IMG/VR virus record: IMGVR_UViG_2534682222_000014
Span: 1 to 15,578 of that record
Length of the DNA stretch: 15,578 nucleotides
Direction: 5' to 3' (one strand)
Origin: a virus
Lineage: Duplodnaviria; Heunggongvirae; Uroviricota; Caudoviricetes
Part shown: positions 1 through 8,358 of the stretch, in pieces
Layout of the letters: each line of letters opens with the position of its first letter
Numbering within the stretch: the stretch's first letter is position 1
Program-made: the position numbers and the translations under genes
Notes under the pieces: model-generated
Told to the model about the DNA's origin: nothing
Databases searched by the model: none
Seen by the model: only the letters and a program-made list of their open reading frames with translations

Positions 1-282
1 TTAGTGCCTCAGATGATCAACCAGGCGCGCAACGTTGCCTCTGACGGCCACTAGCACGGAAAGGAAAATAATGTTGGCCCCAATAGTGGCCCATGACGAA
101 TGAGGATAAATCCCGCACAGGTAGGCCAGAGGCACAGCGCTGTACGTGACAGTAATTAGCCAGGCTAAACGCGAAACCCACGGACGATGGCGTGAATCAC
201 CACGACGATAAAACATCAGGGTAATCACCACCCCGACGCATAGAAGAGCGTTGATTGTTGCCGATGGGTCATTTAGTACCAC
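1..282 (-). CDS. Small lysis-cassette membrane protein, holin/antiholin-like (three predicted TM helices)
   Basis: 93-aa ORF with stop TAA at 1-3. GTG start at 282 has GGGAGG 5 nt upstream and overlaps the upstream gene's 3' end by 14 nt. Hydrophobic segments INALLCVGVVITLMFY, LAWLITVTYSAVPLAYLCGIY and IGANIIFLSVLVAV. Function inferred from size, topology and position after Q; family not recognised. Confidence 0.5.
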   Translation of the reverse strand: MVLNDPSATINALLCVGVVITLMFYRRGDSRHRPWVSRLAWLITVTYSAVPLAYLCGIYPHSSWATIGANIIFLSVLVAVRGNVARLVDHLRH

Positions 283-655
283 CAGAACCTCCCCGGCGCG
301 TTATCAGCGCCACCAAAGAGCCGACATCCTGGTTATTCAGGAACGTCAGGATTTTGACAGCTAAAGCCGAAACGATTACGGCACCGATGGCATCCAGAGG
401 CTTATCACTGTAACCAGTCCAGTCAGCCAGCTTTGAACCCACCAGCCCTGAGCAGATGATCCCGGCGATGTAGGACACGACAAAATACGCCAGCCGACGC
501 GTTGCACTAAGGTCCGCAGCTGTTGCAATGTAAAATACAGCTCCGGCAAATGCGCCAAACACCACGCCGTAATCGGTTCCGGACAGAAATCCATAGACGC
601 TAGCTCCCGTCAGGACACCACCAGCCAGCCCAGTACCGGAAATCGGATCGGACAT
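269..655 (-). CDS. Putative holin-like membrane protein (about four predicted TM helices)
   Basis: 128-aa ORF, ATG at 655 preceded by AGAGGGGG about 5 nt upstream. Gly/Ala-rich hydrophobic segments (LAGGVLTGASVYGFL, VVFGAFAGAVFYIATAA, LAYFVVSYIAGIICSGLVG, AIGAVIVSALAVKILTFL). First gene after the moron in the late operon; holin role is positional inference. Confidence 0.55.
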   Translation of the reverse strand: MSDPISGTGLAGGVLTGASVYGFLSGTDYGVVFGAFAGAVFYIATAADLSATRRLAYFVVSYIAGIICSGLVGSKLADWTGYSDKPLDAIGAVIVSALAVKILTFLNNQDVGSLVALITRRGGSGGTK

Positions 656-700
656 TTAGCCCCCTCTTTATTGCTGTGAGTCCTCTCAGAACGAGGGGAA

Positions 701-725
701 TAAAAAAGGCCACCATCTGGTGACC
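701..725 (-). terminator. Intrinsic terminator downstream of the moron gene (leftward transcription)
   Basis: On the minus strand: GGUCACC-AGAU-GGUGGCC stem (7 bp with one G-U pair) followed by UUUUUU. Lies between the moron stop (744) and the holin-like start (655). Confidence 0.5.
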
Positions 726-743
726 TTCGTTAATTTTGAGTTG

Positions 744-1280
744 TTACAACGATCTAATCTCTTTCGATAAACAGTCCAACATTTTATTAGCCTCCTTATC
801 AAAATTATGACCAGCGTTTAGAATTATATTCTTCGCCAACTTCTTATCGTCAACTTCACCTGACTGTATTTTGAAGAAAACAGAATTGGCTGGTTTCAGC
901 AATTTTCTAGATTCATCAAACATAACGCTAATCTCAGGAAAATAAACACCAGAGATTAAAATAATTCTATCACCAACTCCTTTATACTCAGGGTTTTTAC
1001 TGAGAATTTCGTCTGATTTATCGCCAATGTCCTCAGATTTAAAACACCCATCAATACAATTTATCCAGCTCATATGATTGGCAAAAAGCAATTTTTTATA
1101 AAGTATTAATGCCTCATAAAGCTGTTCACCCTTTTCAATTTTCCTTCTATTTCTTTCTGAGCGCCACTCATGCGACTGCCTACTACTGTTCTGGAGGTAA
1201 CTTGTAAGAGAAGTTATCAATGTACCCACAAAAATCCCCAAAGCAGCAATTAATGCAACATTTTCTTTAGTCAGTTCCAT
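744..1280 (-). CDS. Hypothetical N-terminally membrane-anchored protein; AT-rich moron between Q and the lysis genes
   Basis: Open frame 744-1394; preferred start is ATG at 1280 (MELTKENVALIAALGIFVGTLITSL...), giving 178 aa, because the upstream 38 codons run through the terminator hairpin. Single N-terminal TM helix then a roughly 150-aa Lys/Glu-rich soluble domain with no motif I recognise. Visibly lower GC than neighbours. Confidence 0.6.
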   Translation of the reverse strand: MELTKENVALIAALGIFVGTLITSLTSYLQNSSRQSHEWRSERNRRKIEKGEQLYEALILYKKLLFANHMSWINCIDGCFKSEDIGDKSDEILSKNPEYKGVGDRIILISGVYFPEISVMFDESRKLLKPANSVFFKIQSGEVDDKKLAKNIILNAGHNFDKEANKMLDCLSKEIRSL

Positions 1281-1290
1281 ACTATCACCA

Positions 1291-1316
1291 TAAAAAAACC
1301 CCACCGAGGTGAGGTT
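1291..1316 (-). terminator. Intrinsic terminator, candidate tR' of the late operon
   Basis: Minus-strand CCUCACC-UCGG-UGGGG hairpin followed by UUUUUUU (plus-strand A-run 1292-1298), about 90 nt downstream of the Q stop and immediately before the moron RBS. Confidence 0.55.
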
Positions 1317-1332
1317 ATCATAGTGATCGATA

Positions 1333-1387
1333 GTTATACAAAGCCCATCATTGATGTCAAATATACACAAATACGGCAACATTGCAA
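1333..1387 (-). promoter_or_regulatory. Candidate late promoter (pR'-like) between Q and the terminator
   Basis: Minus strand reads TTGCAA-16 bp-TATATT (plus 1387-1382 and 1365-1360); an overlapping alternative is TTGACA-16 bp-TATAAC (plus 1360-1355 and 1338-1333). Sigma70-like hexamers seen by eye; which one is used is not established. Confidence 0.3.
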
Positions 1388-1403
1388 ACATCATGACGCT
1401 AAA

Positions 1404-2234
1404 TTACGCGATATTTATCACATCTTCACTTTTAGTCACCCGATTCAGTTGAGAGCTTGAATAACTCTCCTCCTGGAAACATTTGGTCACCAGGCTTTCA
1501 TAGAATGGTTTCCAGCTATAACGCCACGTTCGGTCAGGCAGACTCGGCAACTCAGAAAAAACACCTCGATAGGCAACCGATGATTTTGGCCTGCTGTATC
1601 CCCGCCCTTCGCAGCGCTTACATTCTTTGTAAACTGGTACGCCCTGCAGTTCTGTCGCTTTACGGTCAACCGTCTTGCCAGTTCCGCCACACTGGCATCG
1701 CTTACTTAACTTTCCGGTACCATGGCATCGCGAACATAAACTTTGCTCGGAGTCAGTTACTTCTCGCTTTACCTCAAAGTCAGATGGTGACTGTCTCAGG
1801 TCTTTTGCCCATTGTGGCAATCGCATTGTGTAATGGCTTTTAGTCACGGTTTTAGTGGTTGTAAGCAACCCTTTACCACTACATTTTGGGCATGCCACAC
1901 AATCAGCTGCTGATGAGGAATAATCGTTATAGGCAAACCGGGCAAGGATACGCATGCAGAGGGGAAACTTTTTCCCTGATGCTTTACGAATAGCCATGGG
2001 CGCATGCTCTTTCGCGTACTCCGTTAGCCAGGCAATTGACATCTCCCTGTCCTTGCTGCTGATACCAGCTTTACCTAGAAACATTGCCAGCCCGATGCCT
2101 GCATCAGCCTGAGTCATCCCCAGTGCAGCCATTACATCAGTCACAGTAAGTTGCTCACTTGCTGTCGCTCTGCTGGTATCTGAGATGTGCATGCCTTTAG
2201 GCGCAAAAAACTTTAAAACATTGTCCAGATTCAT
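1404..2234 (-). CDS. Late-gene antitermination protein Q (zinc-binding CxxC type)
   Basis: Track ORF begins at TTG 2264; preferred start is ATG at 2234 with GGAG 5 nt upstream (276 aa). Four CxxC-G-x-G motifs (CPKCSGKG, CSRCHGTGK, CQCGGTGK, CKRCEGRG) as in phage Q antiterminators of the non-lambda type. Position immediately upstream of promoter/terminator and lysis genes. Confidence 0.6.
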   Translation of the reverse strand: MNLDNVLKFFAPKGMHISDTSRATASEQLTVTDVMAALGMTQADAGIGLAMFLGKAGISSKDREMSIAWLTEYAKEHAPMAIRKASGKKFPLCMRILARFAYNDYSSSAADCVACPKCSGKGLLTTTKTVTKSHYTMRLPQWAKDLRQSPSDFEVKREVTDSEQSLCSRCHGTGKLSKRCQCGGTGKTVDRKATELQGVPVYKECKRCEGRGYSRPKSSVAYRGVFSELPSLPDRTWRYSWKPFYESLVTKCFQEESYSSSQLNRVTKSEDVINIA

Positions 2235-2250
2235 ACGGTCTCCATACTTC

Positions 2251-3246
2251 TTAAGCTGTCGCAATTACGCCGATCGCCAGTGCTCGATCAATAAAACGCA
2301 GTAGCAGCTCAAGCTGCGTACCATGCTTCTGCTCGAATGCTGGTACATCGGCGTGTAACTCGTCGTGGCACTCTCTGCACAGAGGGATCACGAAGAGGTC
2401 ATGGGCTTTTGTTGCTGTACCACCCATACCGTGCCCTACGATATGGTGCGGATCATCTGCTGGCCGTCGGCAACACTCACAGGGTTGTGTTTTAACCCAG
2501 CGGGTGTACGTCTCATTTATCCAGCGGCGACGTTTTGGCCTGAGCATAAAAGACTCTGGCGACTCCGGATCAACAGAGAGCGTGAGGATCTTCTTCGCCT
2601 TCTCCTGCACGAGTCTGGTTGCTGACGAGGAAGGCACTATGTCGCTTTCCCTCATGACAGAACGGATCTTCTCATCCGGAAGGCGCAACCCTTTGTGCGC
2701 AACGCTTTCCGGAATAACATCAGCCAGGTCGTTTCTGACCATCCACCAGCACAGTTCAGGAAGCGTCAGGATATGCGACTCGGGAAAACCAGAATCACGC
2801 CGAATGACTTCCAGAATCCAGGATACCAGGTTTCCGGCCGCTATACCTGCAAGCTGTTCGGTATGCTGCCCCGACAAAGTGTGATCGCAATGCCAGCACA
2901 GGCGAATACTTCCTGGTGGGTGCCGCATTGTTGTGAAGTTCTTGTCGTGCCACGTTGAATGTGGCCACTGGCATTCAAACCGATTACTCAACCATTGCTC
3001 AAGGGAAGGAAGCCCACCGGCACGCTGAATAACCCTCTCATTCTCGAAGACCTGACGCATTACCGGATCATCAGCTAGCGGCTGAATGGCTGCCGGAACA
3101 GCCCCGGTACTGAATGACGCCATTTCTTCTGGTTCAGGCTCGAGCAGAACGCGACCACGCATGAAGAGGTGCATCAGTTCCGTACCGGGACGGAACAGCA
3201 CAATCCCCATACGATGGGCGATCTCGGGGGTAAGCAGAGCTCTCAC
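2251..3246 (-). CDS. YdfU-like DUF968 family prophage protein with C-terminal HNH-like Cys/His motif
   Basis: C-terminus PCECCRR...HHIVGHGMGG...IPLCRECHDELH is a zinc-finger/HNH-like signature recalled from YdfU/DUF968 proteins. Start uncertain: GTG at 3246 overlaps the Rha stop as GTGA with AGGGGG 9 nt upstream; the alternative GTG at 3279 gives 342 aa. Confidence 0.5.
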   Translation of the reverse strand: MRALLTPEIAHRMGIVLFRPGTELMHLFMRGRVLLEPEPEEMASFSTGAVPAAIQPLADDPVMRQVFENERVIQRAGGLPSLEQWLSNRFECQWPHSTWHDKNFTTMRHPPGSIRLCWHCDHTLSGQHTEQLAGIAAGNLVSWILEVIRRDSGFPESHILTLPELCWWMVRNDLADVIPESVAHKGLRLPDEKIRSVMRESDIVPSSSATRLVQEKAKKILTLSVDPESPESFMLRPKRRRWINETYTRWVKTQPCECCRRPADDPHHIVGHGMGGTATKAHDLFVIPLCRECHDELHADVPAFEQKHGTQLELLLRFIDRALAIGVIATA

Positions 3247-3926
3247 GCGACCTGCCCCCTGGCAATGTGTTCTGCCCACAGTCCACCAATCCAGCGCACG
3301 CCTTTCGCCGTGAAACGTGCCTGGCTGAATGCATGATTTGAGGTTACGGATGTGCCGGTTTTCATTTCAAAACGGCCCGCATCAATATGCTGATGCCGTG
3401 GGGTCATCGTTCCGCCAAGGCGATACATGATGTCGTTCTCAAGGAGGAATAACCGCAGATCTGGCTCTTTGGCCTTAAGCAGTTTTGCCACCTGGCGGAA
3501 TGACATTGACCCACTGGCTGTACAGTACCGATCAACAAACGCTACCTTCGGCGCAGCGGCAGCCAGTTCGTTAGTCAACTGTTGTTTTTGTTCTGCAAGG
3601 TCAGCTGCAAGACGTAGGGCTTCAGAGAATGATTGAGGAATCGTCTGCTGCTGTGCCTGCTCAAGCTCCTGCCAGCGATCAACCAGACGCGCGGTAAACT
3701 CCGGCGACAGCTGCGCGACAACGATATAACTGTCCCGCTTCCCTATCAGATAAACCGATACCGACTGATTGAGGTGATTTTTAACTTCCCCCATTGGGGG
3801 GAGTTCAATAACACCGCGCTCTGCCAGGCGTTCAATGGACCGTTTAACATGGTCATGTCGTGATTCCACCAGCTCAGCAATATCGCTGCTGGACATGGTT
3901 AATGCTGTTGTTGCTAATTGGCTCAT
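3243..3926 (-). CDS. Rha-family phage regulatory protein / antirepressor (Rha N-domain plus KilA-C/ANT-like C-domain)
   Basis: ATG at 3926 preceded by GGAG 7 nt upstream (track ORF extends to 3965). N-terminal SDIAELVESRHDHVKRSIERL matches the Rha-domain signature; C-terminal half resembles antirepressor KilA-C domains. Confidence 0.7.
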   Translation of the reverse strand: MSQLATTALTMSSSDIAELVESRHDHVKRSIERLAERGVIELPPMGEVKNHLNQSVSVYLIGKRDSYIVVAQLSPEFTARLVDRWQELEQAQQQTIPQSFSEALRLAADLAEQKQQLTNELAAAAPKVAFVDRYCTASGSMSFRQVAKLLKAKEPDLRLFLLENDIMYRLGGTMTPRHQHIDAGRFEMKTGTSVTSNHAFSQARFTAKGVRWIGGLWAEHIARGQVA

Positions 3927-3939
3927 ACTTTTCTCCATA

Positions 3940-4326
3940 TCAGGCGGCTGCACCCGCCGGTTCATATCTGCTGATCGTTATCTCTACCCGACCTTTCGGC
4001 ACTACGGGTCCCCATTCCACCAGCATGCGCTTAATCTGGCTGTCGTCTTCCCAGACACCCGCATGCGTCAGCGCGTCAAACAGGGCTTTGTTGTAATTAT
4101 CGATATCCCGGCGGCGCGCATCCGGCGGGTACAGAGTGATTTCAACCGCTGCCAGTTCAGTCGATGGCTTCGGGAGACGTCGTAATTGCTCAATGATCGC
4201 CACGCAGGCAGCGCTCTGGTATTTACGACCATCAGCGCTAATGAGGTGACGACCGGCCAGCGGCCCCTTATTAGGGGCGCGCCAGTAAGTGTTCACGCTC
4301 GGAGGAAAAGGCAGGATCAGTTTCAC
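3940..4326 (-). CDS. rusA: RusA-type Holliday-junction resolvase
   Basis: 128 aa, N-terminus KLILPFPPSVNTYW and acidic DIDNYNKALFDALTHAGVWEDD match RusA. GTG start overlaps the upstream stop as GTGA with GGGGAGAGG 4 nt upstream. Confidence 0.85.
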   Translation of the reverse strand: MKLILPFPPSVNTYWRAPNKGPLAGRHLISADGRKYQSAACVAIIEQLRRLPKPSTELAAVEITLYPPDARRRDIDNYNKALFDALTHAGVWEDDSQIKRMLVEWGPVVPKGRVEITISRYEPAGAAA

Positions 4327-5642
4327 GCGGCCTCTCCCCGCATATTGCGAACAAGTTCAGAAGCGGCAGTAATGATTTCGCTGGTGGCCGTTCGTTCCAG
4401 CCAGAGTTGATTGATGTTGGCTTTCAGCTTGTTCTGCTGTGATTCATCCAACATGTCAGCGCCATCTACCTGGTTGAACACAATCCCAACCTCCAGTGGC
4501 CAGATACGGGACTCGGGAAGCGGATCCGCTACTGGTTTAGCTTTCTCACGGATGTGCATGCGGATCTGGCGAATATTGGACCATCTGGAAACATCCAGGC
4601 TTCCCATGGCTGCAATGAAATCAGTGCTGTTCATGCCATATTCACCGGATGCTTCAAGGGCAACAGTGCGAATACGTTCCGACATATCCAGGCGCACTGC
4701 AGCGTCATCGAATTCAATCGACAACAACCACTCATCCACACCGAACAAAATACTCTCACGAATAAGCAGCTTCGCTTTGTCGATCGTTAATGGTGATACC
4801 TGAGTGAATTCCGGTGCTTCAACAGAATCCGCCGCCCAGGTATGCCCAAACTTCGATTCACTGAATGTGTATTCTTCTTTATCGCCAAACGCAGCTCTAA
4901 CGCATGCCCACGCCTCGACGCCGCTGACATCAAAAATATCTTTCTGAGTGAGTGGCAACTCAGCTTCTGGCTTATCAGCTGCAGGAGGTGTGGCAGTTGC
5001 AGGTTGAGACTTGCTGGCAGCAAATTGCGCCAAAGTCATAAACGCCCGCCCTTTTGCCTCCAGTTCTGTGCGGTTGATATAGCTGAACCGCTCAACACGC
5101 CACGACTTATCGAATACAGCTATGGCACCGGCAAAAAACGCGCTGGTGGGTTTCTGTTTTTCGTCAGCAGGTACAAACCACACAGGCAGATCGAACCCAA
5201 TACGACCACGAATGAATACAATGTGATCGGCATCTTCTGGCCACCACGTTTCACTCGGCGCGGCTTTTATCAGGAATACATAGCGACCGCCCTTCTCGCG
5301 CTGGGCTGCTGCGTAGTTCATGATATGCGTCATGCCGGTGATCGCCTGCTTCTCGTGGTACTGCGAACGGCTATACGGAGGGTTGCCATAACCAGCGCCG
5401 CCCAGTTCTGCCAGACGTTCAGACCAGTGCTGTGTCAGCGCGTTATCTTCGGCGGTGTACCATGCCGGGCACTTCGCGTTGTCGTCGTCAGCAAACAAGT
5501 CCAGAGCTAATGGACCAAATAGCGCGTTGATCCCCCAAAAAAGCAGATCCGGTGTCCGCCACTGATCGCCAACTTCTTTCAATTCGTGAGCTGGTTTGCT
5601 ACGCAGTGCCGCCAGCGCCTGGCAATATTTATTGGTCATCAT
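4323..5642 (-). CDS. Phage Dam-type N6-adenine DNA methyltransferase fused to a roughly 220-aa C-terminal domain of unknown function
   Basis: 439 aa. N-terminal half contains LDLFADDDN and the catalytic NPPY motif of N6-adenine MTases. C-terminal half (from about residue 215) has no motif I can assign. Start ATG overlaps the stop of the upstream initiator gene as ATGA. Confidence 0.7.
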   Translation of the reverse strand: MMTNKYCQALAALRSKPAHELKEVGDQWRTPDLLFWGINALFGPLALDLFADDDNAKCPAWYTAEDNALTQHWSERLAELGGAGYGNPPYSRSQYHEKQAITGMTHIMNYAAAQREKGGRYVFLIKAAPSETWWPEDADHIVFIRGRIGFDLPVWFVPADEKQKPTSAFFAGAIAVFDKSWRVERFSYINRTELEAKGRAFMTLAQFAASKSQPATATPPAADKPEAELPLTQKDIFDVSGVEAWACVRAAFGDKEEYTFSESKFGHTWAADSVEAPEFTQVSPLTIDKAKLLIRESILFGVDEWLLSIEFDDAAVRLDMSERIRTVALEASGEYGMNSTDFIAAMGSLDVSRWSNIRQIRMHIREKAKPVADPLPESRIWPLEVGIVFNQVDGADMLDESQQNKLKANINQLWLERTATSEIITAASELVRNMRGEAA

Positions 5643-6505
5643 GAACGGAACCCCGAATTTTCTGGCAGTGAGTAATCAACACTCTGGAAGTTTGCGCGGC
5701 TGGCTGAGTTAGTCTCCCATTTGCCGTTAACGCGTTCAGGCCGGCCAGCACTGGACCATTTGGTCGCGCTTTGCAGGTAACCAGGGAAGTTTTTTGGAAT
5801 GAACAGAGTTGCCGGGCGGAGGTATTGCGCCTGCTCGCTATCACGCCAATCGGCATTTTTGTAATCCACTACCAAGCACAGGTCATCAACAGTGAATTGT
5901 TCCCGAAGACGGGCGCGAATATTCTCCAGCGACGTGCTGCATACCTGGTAGCGTGAGCCAGTAGTCTGATTCAGGTAAGACAAAACCTGTCTGGCCTGAT
6001 CAGTAATCACAACCTCAGGGTCGGGTTGCGCCGCAACCGGACAAGAGGGTTTTGAAGTTACTTGTGGATCTTGTTTTGATTTTACTGACGGATCCCCGCC
6101 AGATTCTGACGGGTCAAAACCATCGTTTTTGCCAGATTTCGACGGGTCAGTTTTTGAGGCGTCAAATTTTGATGCGTCAGATTTTGACGTGTCAGAATCT
6201 GACAGTTGAGAAAATGCGGCAGTCTGAAGTTTCGCCACATTCAGCCGATACACGTTCGAAGCATTACGGTTACCATTACGGCGCTGTGTACGTGTGAGCC
6301 AGCCATCTTTTTCAAGCTTTGCGATTGCCGTTCTGATAGTGCTCGGGCCTGCGCCAAGCTGGCGAGCAATAGTTTCAATTGACGGCCAGCACACACCTTC
6401 ATCGCTGCTGAAGTCAGCAAGGCGAGCCATGATCGCAACACTGGACAACTTCATGCCCGACGCTGCGCAACCATCCCATACGTAGCCGGTTAATTTAGTG
6501 CTCAT
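5639..6505 (-). CDS. Replication initiation protein (O-like; N-terminal HTH, repeat linker, conserved phage C-terminal domain)
   Basis: 288 aa. N-terminal winged-helix-like region (PSIETIARQLGAGPSTIRTAIAKLEKDGWL), low-complexity S/K/D linker with 5-aa periodicity, and a C-terminal domain of the conserved-phage-C-terminus replisome-organiser type. Sits where lambda O lies, downstream of cro/cII. Confidence 0.7.
   Translation of the reverse strand: MSTKLTGYVWDGCAASGMKLSSVAIMARLADFSSDEGVCWPSIETIARQLGAGPSTIRTAIAKLEKDGWLTRTQRRNGNRNASNVYRLNVAKLQTAAFSQLSDSDTSKSDASKFDASKTDPSKSGKNDGFDPSESGGDPSVKSKQDPQVTSKPSCPVAAQPDPEVVITDQARQVLSYLNQTTGSRYQVCSTSLENIRARLREQFTVDDLCLVVDYKNADWRDSEQAQYLRPATLFIPKNFPGYLQSATKWSSAGRPERVNGKWETNSASRANFQSVDYSLPENSGFRS
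6087..6205. repeat. Iteron-like direct repeat array (candidate replication origin) inside the initiator gene
   Basis: Four in-phase tandem 15-mers at 6141-6200 (gacgggtcagttttt, gaggcgtcaaatttt, gatgcgtcagatttt, gacgtgtcagaatct), further copies at 6108-6122 and 6201-6205, and a weaker one at 6087-6101. They encode the SKxDx linker repeats. Confidence 0.6.
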
Positions 6506-6674
6506 GATCGTCCGTTATCTCCCTGAACTTTTGCCTGAAATGCTCAAGTGGGCTGAAGCATTCGTGTGGATAGCCATCTCGCAGGTAGATAACGCGCTGT
6601 GTTTCTGGCTCCCAGCGGATAACACGGACTGGCACTCCGCGGTGATCTTTGAACCTTCGGTTAAGTTCGCGCAC
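6495..6674 (-). CDS. Small hypothetical protein (59 aa), possibly DUF4222-like; overlaps the initiator start
   Basis: Below the track threshold, found by hand. GTG at 6674 with GGAGGG about 10 nt upstream; product VRELNRRFKDHRGVPVRVIRWEPETQRVIYLRDGYPHECFSPLEHFRQKFREITDDHEH; stop TAA 6495-6497 overlaps the O-like start by 11 nt. Family assignment is from memory only. Confidence 0.4.
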   Translation of the reverse strand: MRELNRRFKDHRGVPVRVIRWEPETQRVIYLRDGYPHECFSPLEHFRQKFREITDDHEH

Positions 6675-6846
6675 AGGCGTTTTGCCCTCCGATAGTAGAC
6701 CCCCACAATTACGGCAGCCTGGCTGTGGTTACATGACACCCAGCGATTTGATACTTTGCATTCATACCGAAACAGCGGAAGACCCGGCACCGGGATCATT
6801 CGTAGTTGCGGTAAGTGAGGATTTACGATTAAATTGCTCATGCGGA

Positions 6847-7398
6847 TTATTTCTCCATACTCGAAGAGTTGTTCGCCAAGGCGCCCGGAGCTGCACACTC
6901 GCGGGCGTCACTCTTTTCAGCGACACAAAAAACTCGGTAAAGCAGCGTGACGTGCTCCTGAAACTTCGCGATCACCTGGTAGCTGTTCTCCTCTATCTGA
7001 GCACGCTCATCTGCGTCAATCACCCCATCAGCAGTAGCCTTTCGCACAAAGGTAGAATGACGACCAATCCATTCAATGGACTCCATCAGGCGCTGGTTAA
7101 TATCGGCGTTATCCAAATCATCAACATCTGCCAGCGGTACGAATACGCCTTGAGAATGGCGCGCAACGGCATCAGCAATATGAGTCGAACCACCAGCACG
7201 CTGTAGAACCATCGCCCAACCCAACGGGAATATCTGATCGCCCTCAGTGCGGAGACGGTTGAACAACCCGTTCTCTGAAGTTCCTAACCATTCCGCGGCC
7301 TCGGCATACCCACCAGGAAGGTCGGTAATGGTTTTTTTTATTGCGACCACCAGCCAGGCTGGCTGACGTTCGACTTTCCAACTAGGTTCATTACCCAC
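6847..7398 (-). CDS. CII-like phage regulatory protein (CP76-type) or YdaT-like protein
   Basis: 183 aa, GTG start with AAGGGGG 6 nt upstream, 23 bp downstream of the cro stop. Assignment rests mainly on position after cro plus general resemblance to the longer CII (CP76) family. Confidence 0.45.
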   Translation of the reverse strand: MGNEPSWKVERQPAWLVVAIKKTITDLPGGYAEAAEWLGTSENGLFNRLRTEGDQIFPLGWAMVLQRAGGSTHIADAVARHSQGVFVPLADVDDLDNADINQRLMESIEWIGRHSTFVRKATADGVIDADERAQIEENSYQVIAKFQEHVTLLYRVFCVAEKSDARECAAPGALANNSSSMEK

Positions 7399-7421: not shown

Positions 7422-7625
7422 TTACTGCTTGTGTTGAGAATTGTTAAGTTTGCTGTAGAGAGAAGCGTCGTATTTCAACTTCCCGTTCGTAATTCTTTCA
7501 ATGTAAAGAGCCTGTTTTTCTGGGATTACTTCACCCCATTGACATACGGCACTGTGAGTTACCCCTAAGGCAACTGCGGTTTTAGAAATGCCGCCGTAGT
7601 AGTCGACGACTGTCCCTTTATGCAT
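7422..7625 (-). CDS. cro: Cro-like repressor (P22 Cro type)
   Basis: 67 aa, ATG preceded by AGAGGA. HTH segment ISKTAVALGVTHSAVCQWGEVIPEK closely resembles P22-type Cro. Divergent from the cI-like gene across a 100-bp operator region. Confidence 0.7.
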   Translation of the reverse strand: MHKGTVVDYYGGISKTAVALGVTHSAVCQWGEVIPEKQALYIERITNGKLKYDASLYSKLNNSQHKQ

Positions 7626-7725: not shown

Positions 7726-8358
7726 ATGGATACCGTTGGCAGCAGACTGAGATTTAGAAGAAAGCAGAAAAAACTTACCCAGCGCGATGTGGCTGAGTGG
7801 GCAGGAGTAAGCGCGTCTGCTGTGACCCAGTGGGAAAGTGATTTAACAAAACTTTCTGGTGAGAACTTGATATTGGTGTGTAAATGCCTTCAGTGCTCGC
7901 CAGAATGGTTGGTTTTTGGTTCAGGCGATATCGAAAATGGCATTAACATCAACTTGATGTCTGCCAGAGAGGTCCCTCTCATATCATGGGTGCAAGCTGG
8001 TAATTGGACGGAAGTAATTGGAAATCCTAATAATGAACAAGTGAAAACCACTCGAAAACTTTCTGATTCCGCCTTTGCTTTGAGGGTTAAGGGAGATTCA
8101 ATGACTTCTAGCCAGGAGTTGAGTATTCCTGAAGGTTCTATTGTTATTGTTGAACCAGAGTTCGGCTTCGTGGATGAGGCAAACGGTAAAATTGTCGTTG
8201 CTCAAACGGTATCTGGTGGTGAGGCAACTTTAAAAAAGCTGGCGATAGACCCACCGTTTTCGTACCTAATCCCACTGAATCCTGCGTTTAAACCCATTGA
8301 GGTGAATCAAGAGACCAATCTAATTGGGATAGTTAAACAAATTATCATTGACCTTTAG
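7726..8358 (+). CDS. cI: cI-type prophage repressor (N-terminal XRE HTH, C-terminal LexA-like S24 peptidase)
   Basis: 210 aa, GAGGAG RBS. HTH (LTQRDVAEWAGVSASAVTQWE), Ala-Gly cleavage site (VQAGNW), Ser nucleophile in KGDSM and Lys in ATLKKL, typical of RecA-stimulated autocleaving repressors. Confidence 0.85.
   Translation: MDTVGSRLRFRRKQKKLTQRDVAEWAGVSASAVTQWESDLTKLSGENLILVCKCLQCSPEWLVFGSGDIENGININLMSAREVPLISWVQAGNWTEVIGNPNNEQVKTTRKLSDSAFALRVKGDSMTSSQELSIPEGSIVIVEPEFGFVDEANGKIVVAQTVSGGEATLKKLAIDPPFSYLIPLNPAFKPIEVNQETNLIGIVKQIIIDL

Follow-up and report, generated by a model that had tools for sequence, protein, structure and literature searches.

A probable prophage replication origin inside its own initiator gene, where the linker is encoded

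The window, meaning the whole stretch of 15,578 nucleotides that we analysed, is part of an E. coli prophage and is 100% identical to strain MB06232. The prophage genes stand in the order integrase ... repressor, Cro, YmfL, DUF4222, initiator, Dam fusion, RusA, Ant, DUF968, Q and lysis genes, and the host record of the prophage shows the usual layout (coordinates are collected in Table 1). In that record, a second Q-like gene and three tRNA genes come next after the lysis genes, without head and tail genes there. Because these genes stand where head and tail genes would be, the prophage may be composite or truncated.

Upstream of the initiator gene, the DUF4222 ORF is the neighbour in almost every match. 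It overlaps the ORF matching phrog_1170 in a different frame, and both have family support; one annotation is probably an artefact of the other. Downstream, no helicase loader or helicase gene follows the initiator, the genes there being Dam fusion, RusA, Ant, DUF968 and Q, and the early-right operon (window 1-5640 together with the host record) is without a helicase, primase or loader gene. The start of the Dam-fusion gene overlaps the initiator stop codon (ATGA). Its product matches Pfam Dam at residues 19-199 (E=1e-41), and its C-terminal 240 residues are without a Pfam match. In many relatives, homologues of both halves of the fusion come after the initiator.

Table 1. Positions of the genes and sequence elements discussed in the text; positions are those of the window unless a locus of a relative is named.
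Feature	Position	Strand	Description
LexA-type repressor	7726-8358	+	
Cro	7422-7625	-	
cII-like YmfL	6847-7398	-	
ORF matching phrog_1170	6515-6898	-	127 aa; annotated gp40 in SfIV
DUF4222 ORF	6495-6674	-	59 aa; Pfam E=4e-17; overlaps initiator start
Replication-initiator gene	5639-6505	-	288 aa
Dam-fusion methyltransferase gene	4323-5642	-	439 aa
Five contiguous iterons	6191-6203, 6176-6188, 6161-6173, 6146-6158, 6131-6143		13-bp palindromes, 15-bp period
Spacer, iteron 5 to terminal palindrome	6111-6130		~18 bp; A5...T4 inverted motif
Terminal palindrome	6098-6110		GCCAGATTCTGAC on + strand; core CCAGAATCTGG in relatives; 33 bp from iteron 5
AT-rich block, proposed unwinding element	6049-6095		two ~24-bp direct repeats, 6073-6095 and 6049-6071
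GC-rich palindrome GGTTGCGcCGCAACC	6025-6039		inverted repeat; synonymous identity 0.82-0.87; distal edge of constrained zone
Nucleotide-constrained element, proposed origin	6014-6217		codons 97-164
phi24B O	L008 2438-3214		three copies of GGGGCAGGAGCTGCCCC, read as GGAGAA
Vibrio phage Va_PF430-3 initiator	L006 2501-3295		GGTCAAATTCCGACC
phiP27 L17	L005 2501-3427		TTCAGAATCTGAA

The initiator gene is currently annotated only as a 'conserved phage C-terminal domain-containing protein'. Its product possesses an HTH_36 winged helix at about residues 5-95 (Pfam E=8.5e-12) and a Phg_2220_C domain at residues 174-245 (E=1.3e-25), separated by a linker of ~60 residues (about 100-160) that is predicted to be disordered. 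An AF2 model, of low confidence (mean pLDDT 51), gives a helix-helix-strand winged-helix topology at residues 5-88, and residues 100-158, which the repeats described below encode, have pLDDT values below 50. The protein also matches phrog_391 (E=5e-50), phrog_428 (E=1e-64) and phrog_11896 (E=9e-81), and the PHROGs names for it are 'replication initiation O-like', 'replication initiation protein' and 'primosomal protein'. With an N-terminal HTH_36 domain and matches to PHROG replication-initiation families, it has the make-up of an HTH_36-type phage initiator.

A previous interpretation of this DNA, the sequence-only reading, had called the gene O-like. As a family label this did not survive, and what remains of it is the layout and the PHROG naming. 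The initiator has no match to Pfam Phage_rep_O (PF04492) at E<0.01, a family that lambda O and P22 gp18 match with E=6e-36 and E=7e-38, and BLASTP against lambda O gave a non-significant E=0.62. Alignment of the initiator N-domain with the lambda O N-domain by hhalign returned E=0.02 at a probability of 2.4%. For homology to the N-domains of lambda O and P22 gp18, BLASTP gave no significant support. Comparison with solved structures by sequence gave only weak MarR/PaaX winged-helix matches, with E of at least 0.03. As judged by its domain matches, the initiator is an HTH_36 winged helix joined to Phg_2220_C and is not a member of Pfam Phage_rep_O.

Codons 101-136 of this minus-strand ORF contain a repeat array. 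Tandem Repeats Finder places an array of period 15 at 6133-6196 (4.3 copies, 79% matches), and a repeat search finds six in-register copies at 6097-6212 with spacings of 33, 15, 15, 15 and 15. On the gene strand, the repeat unit is the 13-bp palindrome GTCA(A/G)A(A/T)T(C/T)TGAC plus two variable bases, in which the arms GTCAGA and TCTGAC flank one central base. When up to 2 mismatches are allowed, GTCARAWTYTGAC has six matches inside 6098-6203 and eight in the whole window, against 1.3 expected, and none of 200 shuffles reaches eight. There is no second cluster of the motif elsewhere in the window, and the cI-cro operator region is without it. The period corresponds to about 1.4 helical turns, and the 13-bp sites nearly abut. 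Several dyad-symmetric, A/T-centred iterons (six, at 6098-6203) thus lie in the linker-coding region, as in a lambda-type origin.

These results establish that the repeat array noticed in the initiator gene by the sequence-only reading is real and non-random, given the agreement of Tandem Repeats Finder, the repeat search and the shuffles. Its description as 15-bp direct repeats holds for the period of 15, but the natural unit is the 13-bp palindrome and not a plain direct repeat. The claim that the array is translated as pentapeptides of the S-K-x-D-x type was borne out, the peptide being DTSKS/DASKF/DASKT/DPSKS, or D-x-S-K-x in general form. The repeat zone that had been proposed, 6087-6205, does contain the array, but its extent needs revision, as the constrained element is larger (about 6014-6217).

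An adjacent AT-rich element had been named beforehand as a check on an origin at this site, and it was found in the form of a GATC-repeat block at 6049-6095. As in lambda-type origins, this AT-rich region lies directly promoter-distal to the iterons. Its GC content is 30% at 6049-6089; between 2235 and 7660, no other 40-nt stretch has a GC content of 30% or less. The gene strand of the block is A-rich, and at 70% AT over 40 bp the AT-richness is only moderate. Each of the ~24-bp repeats opens with GATCC on the gene strand, placing GATC at 6091 and 6067. The block shows the highest synonymous conservation of the gene (0.91-0.99), and a GATC pair exactly 24 bp apart is found in ~68 of the 79 loci compared below.

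Further out lies the GC-rich palindrome, so that the promoter-distal order is iterons, A-rich region, palindrome. This palindrome closes the constrained zone in relatives with a Phg_2220_C-type C-domain, and it is present in phiNP and not in SfIV. It is possibly part of the origin, although we hold this with low confidence. In lambda, the palindrome to the right of the AT-rich region at 39161-39184 (L170 662-685), TCGTCAGAGAATTCTGGCGAATCC, resembles the terminal unit CCGTCAGAATCTGGCGGGGATCC (window 6089-6111). Relatives with a lambda-O-type C-domain (L060, L078, L087) have a second, lambda-like copy downstream of the AT-rich block.

To compare the element among relatives, we used 79 loci from other bacterial genomes, with N-domain identity ranging from 100% down to 61%, and a further set of 240 loci from viral contigs; a first homology search with the 101-aa N-domain had returned mostly truncated or fused fragments with little diversity. 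In each of the 79 loci the motif occupies this position and reading frame, and no locus has it in another part of the gene. Iteron copy number in these loci is usually 3-8 and changes in steps of 15 bp, with fewer copies in the most divergent loci, whose half-sites have left the window consensus. The terminal palindrome hardly varies, even in relatives with N-domain identity as low as 61%. Among 22 non-redundant full-length homologues, synonymous-codon identity is 0.72-0.99 within the constrained element compared to 0.35-0.65 in the rest of the gene, and amino-acid identity within the element is below that of the rest of the gene.

Codon choice follows the same boundaries and is set by the palindrome. 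Serine is written as TCA or TCT in 82-92% of cases in the linker compared to 21-31% in the N- and C-domains, and lysine as AAA in 97-99% compared to 60-63%. Aspartate is GAC in 67% of cases in the iteron part (44-49% in the N- and C-domains), and in the GATC block GAT accounts for 94% of cases (33% in the iterons and 51-56% in the N- and C-domains). The second block has its GATC site because the Asp codon there is GAT. In divergent relatives the peptide shifts from D-x-S-K-x to E-R-S-D-x and the DNA palindrome is kept; because the peptide changes while the palindrome stays, selection acts on the nucleotide sequence. Changes in the arms are also symmetric, an outer A in the right arm occurring with T in the left arm in 38 of 51 units. 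A DNA palindrome is a form that a peptide repeat has no reason to take.

Several other candidates were considered for this region and rejected. The synonymous constraint was not put down to an overlapping gene, as only the rep frame is open in 78 of 78 relatives and one antisense frame is open in 34. Rfam gave no match in the window that would point to a structured RNA, and for an internal promoter or terminator consensus matches occur at chance level only. Reading GATCCACAA as a DnaA box was also rejected, since 6000-6250 contains no box with one mismatch or fewer and boxes are not enriched in the window.

The half-sites of the palindrome can be related to the protein that is proposed to bind them. 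Across 264 non-redundant genes, the outer half-site base co-varies with a residue of the initiator recognition helix, Arg occurring with G and Ile with T. Most genes, in many variants, have a helix of the form xSTxRTAx, and their half-sites start with GT in 37-66% and with TT in close to 0, except for 18% TT with ESTVRTAI. In the 58 genes with RSTVITA(I/V) or RSTVISAI, GT falls to ~0% and the outer base is T in ~99%, and in ~40 genes with xSTIR(N/D/S)AC, TC is favoured. The phiP27-like genes are an exception, combining TT arms with an Arg helix. The change of Arg to Ile together with G to T is as direct base read-out by the helix would give, and the helix and half-site classes may go back to no more than two or three events in evolution.

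The N-domain and repeats travel together, as a cassette that is joined to different C-domains. Among the 79 loci, the C-domain is of the Phg_2220_C type in 59, of the lambda-O-C type in 14 and of another type in 6. In SfIV, SfII, many E. coli prophages and the CPS-53 remnant of K-12, window 6066-6505 is shared at ~84% nucleotide identity and is then followed by a different C-domain, which in SfIV gp41 (L001 3499-4440) has homology to the lambda O C-domain (E=1e-25). Mobility of the cassette across C-domains is the pattern expected of an origin-recognition cassette. At the DNA level, 1848 of 5426 complete E. coli genomes contain relatives. No natural plasmid was found to use the cassette as its replicon; the instances were prophages within large plasmids or phage-sized circles.

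Individual relatives depart from this arrangement in several ways. The SfIV gp41 gene is followed by PerC-type and other regulator genes instead of a P-like gene. The CPS-53 remnant (L003 2499-3206; the yfdO pseudogene next to yfdN) has kept the iteron array and a lambda-O-type C-domain and has lost the winged helix; therefore, K-12 carries an orphan iteron array. In relatives from Proteus and Providencia (L077, L080-L082, L088, L089) the 15-bp array shrinks, the CCAGAATCTGG terminal unit recurs every 33 bp, encoding the peptide GFHPPESGVQG, and a GATC-headed 24-bp repeat is present in three copies. Palindromic repeats directly after the winged helix are found in the window, SfIV, phiNP, YeP3, Klebsiella phage P7641, phiP27, Vibrio phage Va_PF430-3 and phi24B, in addition to the 79 loci. 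Lineage-specific palindromic repeats after the winged helix are our own generalisation and not a published definition. The more distant HTH_36 initiators of phi24B, Va_PF430-3 and phiP27 each have a repeat set of their own at this position (Table 1), and their records annotate no origin there.

Taken together, we consider it highly probable from the sequence comparisons that the array and the AT-rich block are the replication origin of this prophage, situated where its own initiator gene codes for the linker. The earlier suggestion that the repeats are probably the origin is therefore supported by the comparison, through the presence of the motif in 79 of 79 loci, the frozen synonymous sites, the codon choice, the co-variation with the recognition helix and the AT-rich block. 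Binding, unwinding, helicase recruitment and origin firing are steps that we infer from sequence, and they could proceed as follows. Dimers of the initiator N-terminal winged helix would bind the six 13-bp palindromes. Because five of these abut at a 15-bp period, we propose that they would form a near-continuous protein array, with one further site, the terminal palindrome, adjoining the unwinding region. The nucleoprotein complex would then destabilise the adjoining A-rich block of 24-bp GATC-headed repeats, after which the Phg_2220_C domain may recruit the host replicative helicase. The phage operon has no helicase or loader gene, and because no helicase loader is encoded nearby, this last step is conjecture. 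Transcription from the cro-proximal early promoter would pass through the site, as in lambda.

A different account of the same binding sites is that the initiator-bound array is mainly regulatory, acting in autorepression, as a transcription roadblock in the early operon, or in titration or handcuffing, and is not a start site. Initiators commonly autoregulate via their own binding sites, and here the sites are part of an operon that is transcribed, with the Dam, RusA, Ant and Q genes downstream of them; moreover, the evidence from codons, co-variation and synonymous sites fits this account equally well. What makes it unlikely in our view is the setting of the array, which is flanked by the most conserved, AT-rich and repeat-structured block, as is typical of an unwinding element. 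In addition, the window offers no second motif cluster that could be the true origin, and the layout is that of the experimentally defined origins of lambda and SPP1 (PMC7466680, PMC6316719). A regulatory role and an origin role are not mutually exclusive.

The remaining explanations differ from the origin in what the DNA would be recognised by, or in whether it would be recognised at all. The repeat could be a low-complexity D-x-S-K-x linker made by slippage and without function at the DNA level, in keeping with the predicted disorder of the linker and with a repeat number that varies among relatives, as slippage would give. This is extremely improbable given that the synonymous sites are frozen while the amino acids vary, that the unit is a DNA palindrome which is kept as D-x-S-K becomes E-R-S-D in relatives, and that conservation is higher still in the GATC block and in the terminal palindrome, which is not repeated. 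Alternatively, the sequence could serve another factor, such as the repressor or Cro, the cII-like YmfL, DUF4222, DnaA or SeqA, or its constraint could stem from a gene that overlaps it or from RNA structure. SeqA could bind to the GATC pair, and the small DUF4222 gene is adjacent to the initiator in almost every match. Nevertheless, we regard these options as very unlikely, as the half-site co-varies with the recognition helix of the initiator itself, the motif is missing from the cI-cro operator region, DnaA boxes are neither present in 6000-6250 nor enriched in the window, no alternative frame is conserved open, and Rfam returned no match.

If the site is an origin, a more elaborate scheme can be imagined in which the unwinding element is gated by adenine methylation. 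In this scheme, the GATC pair or triple 24 bp apart would be under the control of Dam and SeqA, the neighbouring Dam would keep the origin methylated for rapid re-firing, a single-protein initiator would act without a phage loader, and the Arg/Ile-G/T code would be readable; as a whole we consider this doubtful. A link between the Dam-fusion gene and the GATC sites of the origin is possible. A Dam homologue is present in the sequenced downstream flank of 30 of the 79 loci, and because the linkage is only partial, strict functional coupling to the origin is not supported.

Our analysis locates the probable origin of a very common enterobacterial prophage family, which includes Shigella serotype-converting phages of the SfII/SfIV type and the E. 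coli K-12 remnant, and delimits an element of ~200 bp (6014-6217) that is directly testable. It should help to annotate this widespread family. The principle itself is known; for these iterons, we found no description in the literature. The rule that an origin is written into the linker of its initiator would thereby extend beyond the lambda-O family. The family also appears to contain a natural specificity switch, in which helix Arg58 changes to Ile along with half-site G to T, making initiator-origin recognition experimentally tractable; if true, the Arg/Ile-G/T code could be used for building orthogonal origins. In practical terms, codon-optimising or recoding such initiator genes would destroy an origin.

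One of the closest known counterparts is ori-lambda, which has four iterons, an AT-rich region and a palindrome, all inside gene O (PMC7466680). The Stx phages 933W and P27 have six-iteron origins, and among lambda and Stx phages the iteron number varies and adds linker residues (PMC7466680). The proposed origin resembles ori-lambda in its position in the linker-coding middle of the initiator gene, in iteron dyads with an A/T-rich centre, in a promoter-distal A-rich unwinding region, in its location within a cro-cII-initiator operon, in a variable iteron number that adds linker residues, and in the order of iterons, A-rich region and palindrome (PMC7466680). In contrast, the initiator N-domain is HTH_36 in the window and Phage_rep_O in lambda, and the C-domain is Phg_2220_C instead of lambda's own O C-domain. 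The sites are 13 bp long at a 15-bp period, whereas those of lambda are 18 bp long and 20-24 bp apart from start to start. Furthermore, the unwinding block consists of 24-bp GATC-headed repeats and is less AT-rich than that of lambda, and the window is without a P-like loader gene. The statement of the sequence-only reading that the locus mirrors lambda is therefore apt for the linker-internal repeats and the promoter-distal AT-rich region, but not for the initiator family or the 15-bp palindrome packing.

Other lambdoid phages follow a similar plan with different parts. Lambda, P22 and L have distinct iterons inside their own initiator genes (PMC8022706, PMC7466680), and gene 18 of P22 and gene 18 of L are, like the gene described here, lambdoid initiator genes, each with its own internal repeats (PMC8022706). 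The P22 record annotates a rep_origin inside gene 18. The P22 system differs in that gp18 belongs to Phage_rep_O, in that a DnaB-type helicase gene comes next, and in that its repeats are direct repeats of another sequence. Related by sequence are SfIV gp41, the SfII 'O protein', phiNP rep and K-12 yfdO, which share the N-domain and the iteron/GATC cassette at ~84% nucleotide identity. In SfIV, SfII and yfdO the cassette differs in being joined to a lambda-O-type C-domain, and yfdO is without the DNA-binding domain. The records of SfIV, SfII, phiNP and yfdO are all without an annotated origin, and an origin goes unmentioned in the SfIV genome paper.

Outside the lambdoid phages, plasmid iteron origins of the RepA/pi/TrfA kind lie outside the rep gene and comprise DnaA boxes and direct 17-22-bp iterons that are in helical phase. 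The window units are of another kind, as they are palindromic, have a 15-bp period and lie inside the gene with no DnaA box nearby. A closer parallel is SPP1, in which oriL is inside gene 38 for the origin-binding protein G38P and combines direct repeats with an AT-rich unwinding element (PMC6316719). The likeness is in repeats and an AT-rich element inside the gene of the origin-binding protein (PMC6316719), and the differences are that SPP1 is a Gram-positive phage with a separate loader gp39 and helicase gp40 and a second origin, oriR. The principle of an origin within its initiator gene is thus already known, because lambda, Stx phages, P22, L and SPP1 all have it.
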